From: Escherichia coli
GTDB taxonomy: Bacteria; Pseudomonadota; Gammaproteobacteria; Enterobacterales; Enterobacteriaceae
DNA: 27,599 bases
Reading direction: 5' to 3' (one strand)
Assembly: GCF_003334405.1 (NCBI RefSeq)
Contig: NZ_QOWM01000029.1
In this document: one piece after another, positions 17,659 to 19,934 of the stretch
Layout of the letters: each line of letters starts with the position of its first letter
How positions within the stretch are numbered: the first letter of the stretch is position 1
Translations under genes and position numbers: made by a program
Notes under the pieces: model-generated
Told to the model about the DNA's origin: nothing
What the model saw: only the letters and a program-made list of their open reading frames with translations
Database searches by the model: none

Positions 17659-18177
17659 GAAGAAGCCTTACTGGGAATGGGACAGCGCACAGAATATGAG
17701 CCTGTCTTTGTCACCGAAAATCCGGAACAGGTTACCCTCCCTGAAAAAATCTGTCAGTCCCCACAAAGAGTTCGCGACATTATTATCAATCATCCGCTCT
17801 GGGATGAGTACAACAGCCGCTGTATTGGATGCGGACGCTGCACAACCGGGTGTCTGACCTGTACCTGCTACAGCGTTTTTGATGTGGCTTATGACGAAAA
17901 TCCTCAGCGCGGTGAACGCCGTCGCCAGTGGGCCAGCTGTATCGTACCGGGTTTCAGCGATATGGCCGGTGGACATAGTTTTCGCCAGTCTGCGGGAGAA
18001 CGTTTACGTTACCGTGCACTTCATAAAGTCAATGATTACAAAGCCCGCAATGGTACTGAACATATGTGCGTGGGCTGCGGACGCTGCGATGACCGTTGTC
18101 CTCAGTACATTAAATTCTCACGTATTATCAATAAAATGACTGCCGCAGTCCGGCAGGCACTTTCCGGGGAGGCATAA
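17659..18177 (+). pseudogene. asrA: Anaerobic sulfite reductase subunit A (AsrA) 3' fragment, truncated by IS1
   Basis: Frame is open from the IS1 boundary (17659); product contains two ferredoxin-like Cys clusters ([23 protein letters not shown]) typical of the AsrA C-terminus. The N-terminal half is absent because the gene begins at the IS1 end. Confidence 0.7.
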
Positions 18178-18180
18178 CCT

Positions 18181-18999
18181 GTGTCAACGTATTCCTGTCA
18201 CGATAAAGAAAAGCACAGCCTTTTGCCTGCTGCATACCGCATTATTTCCATCACCCGTCATACACCACTGGAGTGGAATTTTCGTGTGGAAGTCGATTTC
18301 CCGGCCCGCTGGGGACAGTTTGTCGAAGTCTCCCTGCCATGCGTCGGGGAGGCGCCCATTTCTGTTTCTGACTGCGGAGAGGGCTGGATAGATCTGCTTA
18401 TCCGCAATGTCGGCAAAGTGACCGGCGCGCTTTTTACCCTCCGTGAAGGTGACAGGGTATGGCTTCGTGGCTGTTATGGTAACGGCTATCCTGTCGATGC
18501 CTTCCGCCACAAATCTCTGGTGGTCATTGCCGGCGGTACCGGCGTTGCGCCAGTCAAAGGGTTAATGCGCTATTTCGTCGAAAACCCGCAGGAAATCAAC
18601 CGACTGGACATGATTTTCGGTTACAGAAACCGGGACTGTGTGCTGTATAAACAAGAGATGGCGAACTGGCACCGGCACCACAATCTCATTCTGACCCTGG
18701 ATGAAGGCGAAGCGGATGAACGTTACCGCACCGGGCGGGTCACAGAGCATCTGGCAGCACTGACATTTAAAGATATCAGCACCATGCAGGCGATTGTTGT
18801 TGGTCCTCCCGTGATGATTAAATTCACCGTACAGATGTTGCTGGAAAAAGGGCTGCAGCCGGAACAAATCTGGGTGGATTATGAACGCCGGATGGCCTGT
18901 GCAGTGGGGAAATGCGGTCACTGCCGCATGGGGGATGTCTACGTCTGCGTCGATGGTCCGGTTTTCAACTATGCCGTAGCCCGTCAGTTTGCAGACTGA
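18181..18999 (+). CDS. asrB: Anaerobic sulfite reductase subunit B (AsrB), flavin/NAD-binding electron-transfer subunit
   Basis: 272-aa product (GTG start) with [19 protein letters not shown] and a C-terminal Cys cluster ([17 protein letters not shown]); length and sequence match Salmonella AsrB as recalled. Confidence 0.75.
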
Positions 19000-19006
19000 G
19001 GAAAAA

Positions 19007-19934
19007 ATGATGAGTGTGGATATTGATATCATTAAGGCCCGGGCAAACAATGAATATCGCCTTTCGAAAGTCCGTGGCGAAGCCATGATCAGCGTACGTA
19101 TTCCTGGCGGCATTCTGCCCGCTCATCTGCTGACGGTGGCACGCGAGATTGCTGAAACCTGGGGTAATGGTCAGATCCATCTGACCACCCGCTAGAAACT
19201 GGCCATGCCGGGGATCCGTTACGAAGACATCGACAGGGTGAATGCCGCACTGGAGCCTTTCATTCGCGAAATTGAAATGGAACTGTGCGATGTTCAGGTT
19301 GATGATCCGAAAGCCGGATATCTGGCGATTGGCGGGCGTAACATTGTCGCCTGCCAGGGTAACCGGATTTGCCGGGTGTCCGAACGACTGTGCCAAAGCG
19401 TCCATGTCAGACTTTGGCATTATTGGGGTGGCCAGAATGCGTTTTACGGCAGAACGTTGCATCGGATGTGGCGCCTGTGTGAAAGCCTGTGCCCACCACG
19501 CCGTGGGGTGCCTGTCGTTAAAGAACGGGAAAGCCACAAAGGAAGAATCGCTCTGTATCGGGTGCGGAGAATGTGTTCTGGCATGTCCCACCCTCGCCTG
19601 GCAGCGTCAGCCACAGGAGTTCTGGCAGGTTCGTCTGGGAGGAAGAACCGGTAAAAAAACGCCACGGGCAGGGAAAGTTTTCCTTAACTGGGTTACAGAA
19701 GATGTCATCAGGCAGGTCATATCAAATCTGTTCGAATTTGAAAAAGAAATGCTGGACGGTAAACCGCGTTACCTCCATATGGGACATCTTATCGGTAAAG
19801 GCGGTTATCTGCGCTTCAAAGAGCGTGTATTACGCGACGTACAACTAAACCCTGAAGCCATGGTCGCCGAACGTATTTACTGGGCAGAAGATGAATCCGT
19901 CGCCCGTATTCACCTCCGGCCTACCGGGCATTAA
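19007..19934 (+). pseudogene. asrC: Anaerobic sulfite reductase subunit C (AsrC), disrupted by an in-frame amber codon and an internal deletion/frameshift
   Basis: N-terminal part MSVDIDIIKARANNEYRLSKVRGEAMISVRIPGGILP…GQIHLTTR ends at TAG (19193-19195) where AsrC homologues continue (…KLAMPGIRYEDID follows in the same frame). Around 19375-19385 the frame shifts by +1 between GNRIC and GCPNDCAKAS. The remainder (to 19934) is siroheme/4Fe-4S sulfite reductase-like. Confidence 0.65.

Follow-up and report, generated by a model that had tools for sequence, protein, structure and literature searches.

The stretch of DNA analysed here, referred to as the window, comprises 27,599 nucleotides of Escherichia coli contig NZ_QOWM01000029.1 (assembly GCF_003334405.1) and contains, at positions 17659-19934, the remains of an asrABC operon. 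The asrABC genes code for a siroheme-dependent anaerobic sulfite reductase, which converts sulfite to H2S. The host replicon is an E. coli IncFII plasmid with a K88-like fimbrial operon and the gene for the EAST1 enterotoxin; the asr fragment (2.6 kb) is one tile in a mosaic bounded by insertion sequences (IS), and it lies between IS1 and IS1414. Very probably the locus is a non-functional relic of a plasmid-borne asrABC operon of the Escherichia lineage, left by ordinary gene decay. The features of the locus are given below, each with the evidence for it.

16891-17658, minus strand: IS1, 768 bp (both terminal inverted repeats and the InsA/InsB frames).
17659-18177, plus strand: asrA′, a 3′ remnant with codons 176-347 and the native stop (alignment to intact operons, TIGR02910).
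18181-18999, plus strand: asrB, an uninterrupted frame of 272 codons (TIGR02911, alignment, exact protein look-up).
19010-19368, plus strand: 5′ part of asrC′, codons 1-120 (alignment; TIGR02912 positions 1-57 upstream of the stop).
19193-19195, plus strand: codon 62 of asrC, TAG in place of CAG (Gln62) (alignment).
19369-19373, plus strand: TTGCC, the single copy kept at the deletion junction (in intact genes, the stretch that was deleted has a TTGCC on either side).
19371-19934, plus strand: 3′ part of asrC′, read in the original frame; it begins with the CPNDC motif and ends with the native stop, 19932-19934 (alignment, TIGR02912).
19942-19971, plus strand: the operon's own terminator-like hairpin, with a T-rich tract downstream of it (fold of -16.6 kcal/mol, kept in homologues).
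20295-21610, plus strand: IS1414 (IS256 family), the right bound of the asr fragment (BLAST matches; 99% identical to annotated IS1414).
14936-15805: repA of the IncFII replicon, the backbone downstream of which forms the left flank of IS1.

The window was aligned with nine intact operons, eight from Escherichia (plasmids of E. coli and E. marmotae, and E. coli chromosomes) and one from Salmonella enterica subsp. arizonae. Position 17659 corresponds to nucleotide 526 of asrA; the first 525 nucleotides (175 codons) and everything upstream are gone, and the final base of IS1, 17658, directly abuts the asrA sequence. The remaining AsrA portion matches TIGR02910 over positions 176-333 with 269.8 bits and, being truncated, does not reach the cutoff of 323.15. 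The asrB gene starts with GTG, as in its homologues, and its product scores 443.5 bits over positions 1-261 of the 261 positions of TIGR02911 (cutoff 288.6), being the only Asr product of the window above its NCBIfam cutoff; the protein is identical to WP_114481659.1, a RefSeq entry named E. coli. In asrC, the amber codon occupies a position where every other sequence examined, eleven other species included, has CAG or Gln. Moreover, 89 bp are missing after 19368 with respect to every intact copy (asrC nucleotides 360-448, give or take the 5 bp of microhomology), with a frame shift of -2. The 3′ part still codes for the 4Fe-4S ferredoxin insert and, of the sulfite-reductase domain, for the C-terminal half; the two AsrC fragments obtain 80.8 and 275.2 bits against TIGR02912 (the latter over positions 143-314), both under the cutoff of 324.1 because they are incomplete. 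Thus, the sequence-only reading, which had described a decaying operon with asrA starting at the IS1 boundary, a full-length asrB, and an asrC with an in-frame TAG for Gln and a frame-shifting deletion, is borne out by the alignment, the Salmonella operon included, and by the NCBIfam assignments.

The lesions recur in independent data sets and are therefore real, not sequencing artefacts. Exact look-up of the window AsrB protein in draft assemblies and Logan contigs retrieved eight contigs. A 12.8-kb stretch of a 33-kb contig from GCA_012530995.1 is 100% identical to window positions 12181-24999, and contigs from GCA_024592615.1, SRR3989531 and SRR1060511 have the same IS1::asrA junction, 89-bp deletion and TAG, with 0-1 differences; across these three features the four data sets show 99.99-100% identity to the window. 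A fifth contig, from ERR15823777 (Logan contig 260, L026), has the junction and the deletion in common with the window, but CAG at codon 62; it differs at three bases, 1033, 1421 and 1563, corresponding to window positions 18663, 19051 and 19193 (C versus T), and the changes other than that at codon 62 are synonymous. L026 thus shows two of the lesions but still CAG, which makes the amber codon the youngest of the events, one that is still polymorphic in the lineage. The junction, which was also sought on other plasmids, was found in these five draft or read-set contigs: a 120-bp probe (coverage of at least 80%) had no match in PLSDB plasmids or complete RefSeq E. coli genomes, no record in PLSDB or the complete E. 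coli genomes contains the full 2763-bp stretch in one piece, and exact-pattern scans of metagenome contigs found neither the deletion junction nor the IS1 junction.

Over the 2276 retained bases, the window has 93.6-95.7% nucleotide identity to the eight Escherichia asrABC copies, too high for a chance resemblance. These copies are 2.5-6.5% different among themselves, except for two nearly or exactly identical pairs, and the window falls within this range, whereas its identity to asrABC of Salmonella enterica subsp. arizonae is 76.5%; the fragment is therefore cargo from the Escherichia accessory gene pool. The closest copies to it, 3′ flank included, are those of E. marmotae and of E. coli plasmids. 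In PLSDB, 18 plasmids carry intact asrABC at 93-95% identity; typing, read for five of them, gave IncF each time, with E. coli or E. marmotae as the host. One member of the set, NZ_MW655526.1, comes from Salmonella and has an Escherichia-type operon at 93.4%. The intact operon also occurs in 51 of 5426 complete E. coli genomes (about 1%), on chromosomes as well as on plasmids, and published work on E. albertii places the operon on the chromosome (PMC11878020). At 90% identity, AsrA and AsrB fall into clusters of about 650 members, whose listed names are almost all Escherichia. The scan of species-representative genomes provided outgroups only, and its exact peptide patterns matched no Escherichia locus; a literature search turned up no specific account of asr on plasmids or as pseudogenes in E. 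coli. The sequence-only reading had regarded asrABC as typical of Salmonella and not to be expected on an E. coli F plasmid, and as a record of the plasmid's host history. The first view does not agree with the number of intact Escherichia copies, and the second is not supported by the identities; the window gives no evidence of a Salmonella host.

Intact counterparts are represented by the IncF and chromosomal operons of Escherichia, such as those of E. marmotae RHB35-E2-C08 (NZ_CP099345.1), E. coli SE11 plasmid pSE11-3 (NC_011416.1) and the chromosome of E. coli ETEC4073. As in these operons, the window has a colinear A′-B-C′ order on the plus strand with short spacers, the GTG start of asrB and the terminator hairpin; unlike them, it is devoid of asrA nucleotides 1-525, of the promoter and of 89 bp of asrC, and Gln62 is replaced by the amber codon. 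The flanks are also different, consisting of uracil-DNA glycosylase/universal stress protein or retron/fimbrial genes around the intact Escherichia copies, and of IS1 and IS1414 in the window. Salmonella enterica asrABC has the same three-gene layout and the same families, TIGR02910, TIGR02911 and TIGR02912, and the proteins of subsp. arizonae are 82% identical to AsrB and 89% identical to intact Escherichia AsrC; however, the Salmonella operon is chromosomal and functional and, at its nucleotide identity, a lineage apart from the window. The three asr genes of Salmonella were reportedly defined by Huang and Barrett in 1991, all three being needed.

Other plasmids also show asr genes close to the replicon or in pieces. 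In E. coli JNU plasmid p1 (NZ_CP083264.1, L018; 2476-7079), and also in L017, an intact asrABC lies about 850 bp or less from the IncFII repA and adjoins a retron-type defence gene pair (AAA ATPase and HNH endonuclease); a position near the replicon is therefore not peculiar to the window. In IncF plasmids of E. fergusonii and E. coli from sheep farms, a piece of asrC has likewise been left beside an insertion sequence, but these remnants differ from the window, as they comprise only some 190 bp from the 3′ end of asrC (87% identity), are associated with ISEc8 and have other junctions, representing independent events. At least a dozen of these plasmids have the 190-bp remnant beside ISEc8; in NZ_CP057221.1 (L020) it is unannotated and located at 3501-3689, corresponding to window positions 19717-19906, between ISEc8 and a gene for an S6-family peptidase (autotransporter). 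Further truncated AsrC fragments are found in E. coli assemblies, for example a 175-aa fragment on 12 contigs, the longest of 4.99 Mb.

At the left border, IS1 has its inverted repeats at 16891-16913 and 17636-17658, and both InsA (17328-17603, 91 aa) and InsB (16906-17409, 167 aa) are present in the list of open reading frames (ORFs); the element gave thousands of matches in sequence searches. A simple IS1 insertion is expected to produce a 9-bp target-site duplication, but none is present here, the flanking 9-mers being different (CCGAATGTG on the left versus GAAGAAGCC on the right). Hence the element marks a rearrangement junction, and the operon was truncated, not captured; IS1 would represent a deletion or recombination junction linking the replicon backbone to the middle of asrA. 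On the backbone side, in the stretch 16773-16890, the relE/parE toxin gene is cut after 64 nucleotides, its homology stopping at 16836, and 54 bp without any match separate this point from IS1; the toxin-antitoxin module beside repA has therefore been lost. The earlier suggestion of foreign cargo captured next to IS1 and then inactivated holds for the inactivation and for the presence of IS1 at the asrA break; it fails for the capture, given the missing target duplication and the truncated relE/parE on the other side, and for the foreign origin, the operon being from the Escherichia pool.

On the right, the native asr flank continues for about 175 bp past the stop, to about 20111, similar to the E. 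marmotae and E. coli plasmid copies (about 71% identity). IS1414 follows; a search for inverted repeats did not find its ends, which were taken from BLAST matches, and no target-site duplication was detected. Since this is true of IS1 as well, both asr borders are rearrangement junctions. With respect to annotated IS1414 (about 1315 bp, a 402-aa transposase and an embedded astA), the transposase of the window is frameshifted through an extra T at 20772, which yields two ORFs (20367-20864 and 20749-21576), and astA, coding for the 38-aa EAST1 heat-stable enterotoxin, is intact at 21083-21199.

The divergence of the fragment bears few marks of relaxed selection. Pairwise dN/dS between the window and the intact copies is about 0.1 (0.06-0.18), indistinguishable from that between intact copies, and the window lineage has 23 synonymous and 10 non-synonymous changes of its own, compared with 30 and 12 in an intact lineage; neither the pairwise values nor these lineage-specific counts gave an overall signal of relaxed selection. 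Most of the 4-6% divergence therefore arose under purifying selection, and the inactivation is recent in relation to the divergence of the lineage. Of the ten non-synonymous changes, five fall at positions that are invariant, or conservatively I/V, in 20 other sequences, eleven other species included: AsrA P241L, AsrB C4Y, AsrC Q62*, AsrC V283R and AsrC D292G. P241L is lineage-specific and lies in the CxxCxxCxxxCP ferredoxin motif, P241 being invariant in the 20 other sequences; C4Y is also lineage-specific, Cys4 being otherwise invariant wherever the position aligns. Such single replacements at invariant residues are the sole sign pointing to drift, and they give a hint of it. Thus asrB appears intact as a reading frame, while its protein may already be impaired through C4Y.

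A sequence of events may be proposed from this anatomy. An IS1-associated deletion, or recombination between two IS1 copies, would have caused the loss of the promoter and of the first 175 codons of asrA. The 89-bp deletion would have occurred between the TTGCC pentamers, most simply by a slipped-strand or microhomology-mediated process, with the consequent frameshift of asrC, and a later C-to-T change would have produced the amber codon at Gln62. The asrB frame would still be open only since no disruptive mutation has struck it yet. With AsrA halved, the catalytic, siroheme-containing AsrC disrupted twice and the promoter gone, no enzyme is predicted to be formed, and sulfite reduction is not expected.

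Other explanations of the locus find little or no support. A stop that depends on one base might be due to a base-calling error, and the window by itself cannot tell; however, that the stop and the frameshift are sequencing or assembly errors, with an intact operon downstream of IS1, has a negligible probability, as the TAG is found in four independent data sets and the 89-bp deletion and the IS1 junction in five, one of which differs exactly at the TAG, while a deletion bounded by microhomology is atypical of sequencing error and asrA lacks half of its length regardless. Weak matches of fragments to models of sulfhydrogenase, NuoI-type ferredoxin and dihydroorotate dehydrogenase electron-transfer proteins might suggest a different, intact oxidoreductase family merely resembling asr, but this is extremely improbable: the AsrA, AsrB and AsrC equivalogs TIGR02910-TIGR02912 are by far the best assignments and are colinear in the asr gene order, and the 94-96% nucleotide identity is to annotated asrABC operons, which have the missing 525 and 89 bp. 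A Salmonella derivation, with the operon recording a stay of the plasmid in that host, is a further alternative. The operon is textbook Salmonella biology, sulfite reduction separates Salmonella from the normally negative E. coli as a species-level phenotype (PMC12452934), the nearest non-Escherichia AsrB found among one-genome-per-species representatives is that of Salmonella arizonae (82% at the amino acid level), and the Escherichia-type operon of NZ_MW655526.1 indicates that such plasmids cross genera. The derivation is nonetheless very unlikely, in view of the much higher identity to many Escherichia copies than to S. arizonae, of the intact operons that E. coli has on chromosomes and that both E. 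coli and E. marmotae have on IncF plasmids, of the chromosomal operon of E. albertii (PMC11878020), and of protein clusters named almost wholly after Escherichia.

The open asrB frame might have been retained because selection favours a separate role for it, for instance as a stand-alone flavin/Fe-S electron-transfer protein expressed by read-through, the locus being then a trimmed module: it is the only open frame, the lineage members found all have an identical AsrB (L026 has a single asrB difference, a synonymous one), and AsrB-like subunits resemble electron-transfer partners such as dihydroorotate dehydrogenase B and the sulfhydrogenase gamma subunit. Nevertheless, the lineage members are near-identical overall (0-3 differences in 2.7-12.8 kb), so that this conservation is uninformative; C4Y affects an invariant Cys, the native promoter is gone with no plus-strand promoter-like site before the fragment, and an unhit frame of 819 bp is expected after a recent inactivation. 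Hence, selection on asrB has very little probability. A broader view, in which plasmid asr has been eroded repeatedly in Escherichia because making sulfide is selected against in E. coli hosts, and not by neutral decay, or in which asrB is kept for its own function, is very unlikely as well; the examples behind its sulfide part are the lineage with the IS1, 89-bp and amber lesions, the 190-bp ISEc8 remnants and the truncated AsrC fragments in complete chromosomes, and the inhibition of E. coli respiration by Salmonella-derived sulfide (PMC12452934) would fit it. As regards the relic of an Escherichia operon undergoing ordinary decay, nothing in the sequence contradicts it, and three points limit it. 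The Salmonella comparison consists of one operon, that of subsp. arizonae, and the Escherichia copies aligned are those of E. coli and E. marmotae. The IS1 truncation and the 89-bp deletion occur together in all the members of the lineage that were found, so that either of these two events may have come first. Finally, a plus-strand promoter scan upstream of asrA′ found nothing convincing and nothing above chance, but such scans are weak, and this leaves room for read-through expression of asrB.

Three further features lie elsewhere in the window. An IS110-family transposase gene (353 aa) at 2928-3989 adds another mobile element to the mosaic, upstream of the parM/repA region. A 357-aa ORF at 11058-12131, on the minus strand, matches the TraI relaxase/helicase over residues of about 1120-1463 only; being partial, it suggests that the transfer region is truncated and that the plasmid may not be self-transmissible. 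On the minus strand, 21630-27599 is occupied by a K88 (F4)-like fimbrial operon of the fae family, with three Fimbrial_K88 subunit genes, a DUF5462 gene, a chaperone and an usher of the PefC/AfrB type, which leaves the window at its edge; the operon has only 88-92% identity to any PLSDB plasmid and may be a distinct fimbrial variant.

Both the operon family and its setting are known, this copy being a pseudogenised one, and the finding matters little beyond annotation. It indicates that asrABC is a minor accessory operon of the genus Escherichia, often located on IncF plasmids and not exclusive to Salmonella, so that its presence on an E. coli plasmid carries no information on a Salmonella host. 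The lesions might be useful as markers to follow the lineage of IncFII plasmids with the K88-like fimbrial operon and EAST1. Besides, they offer a small and clean case of stepwise pseudogenisation, in which the IS1 truncation and the microhomology deletion came first, followed by a nonsense mutation that is still polymorphic among the sister plasmids.

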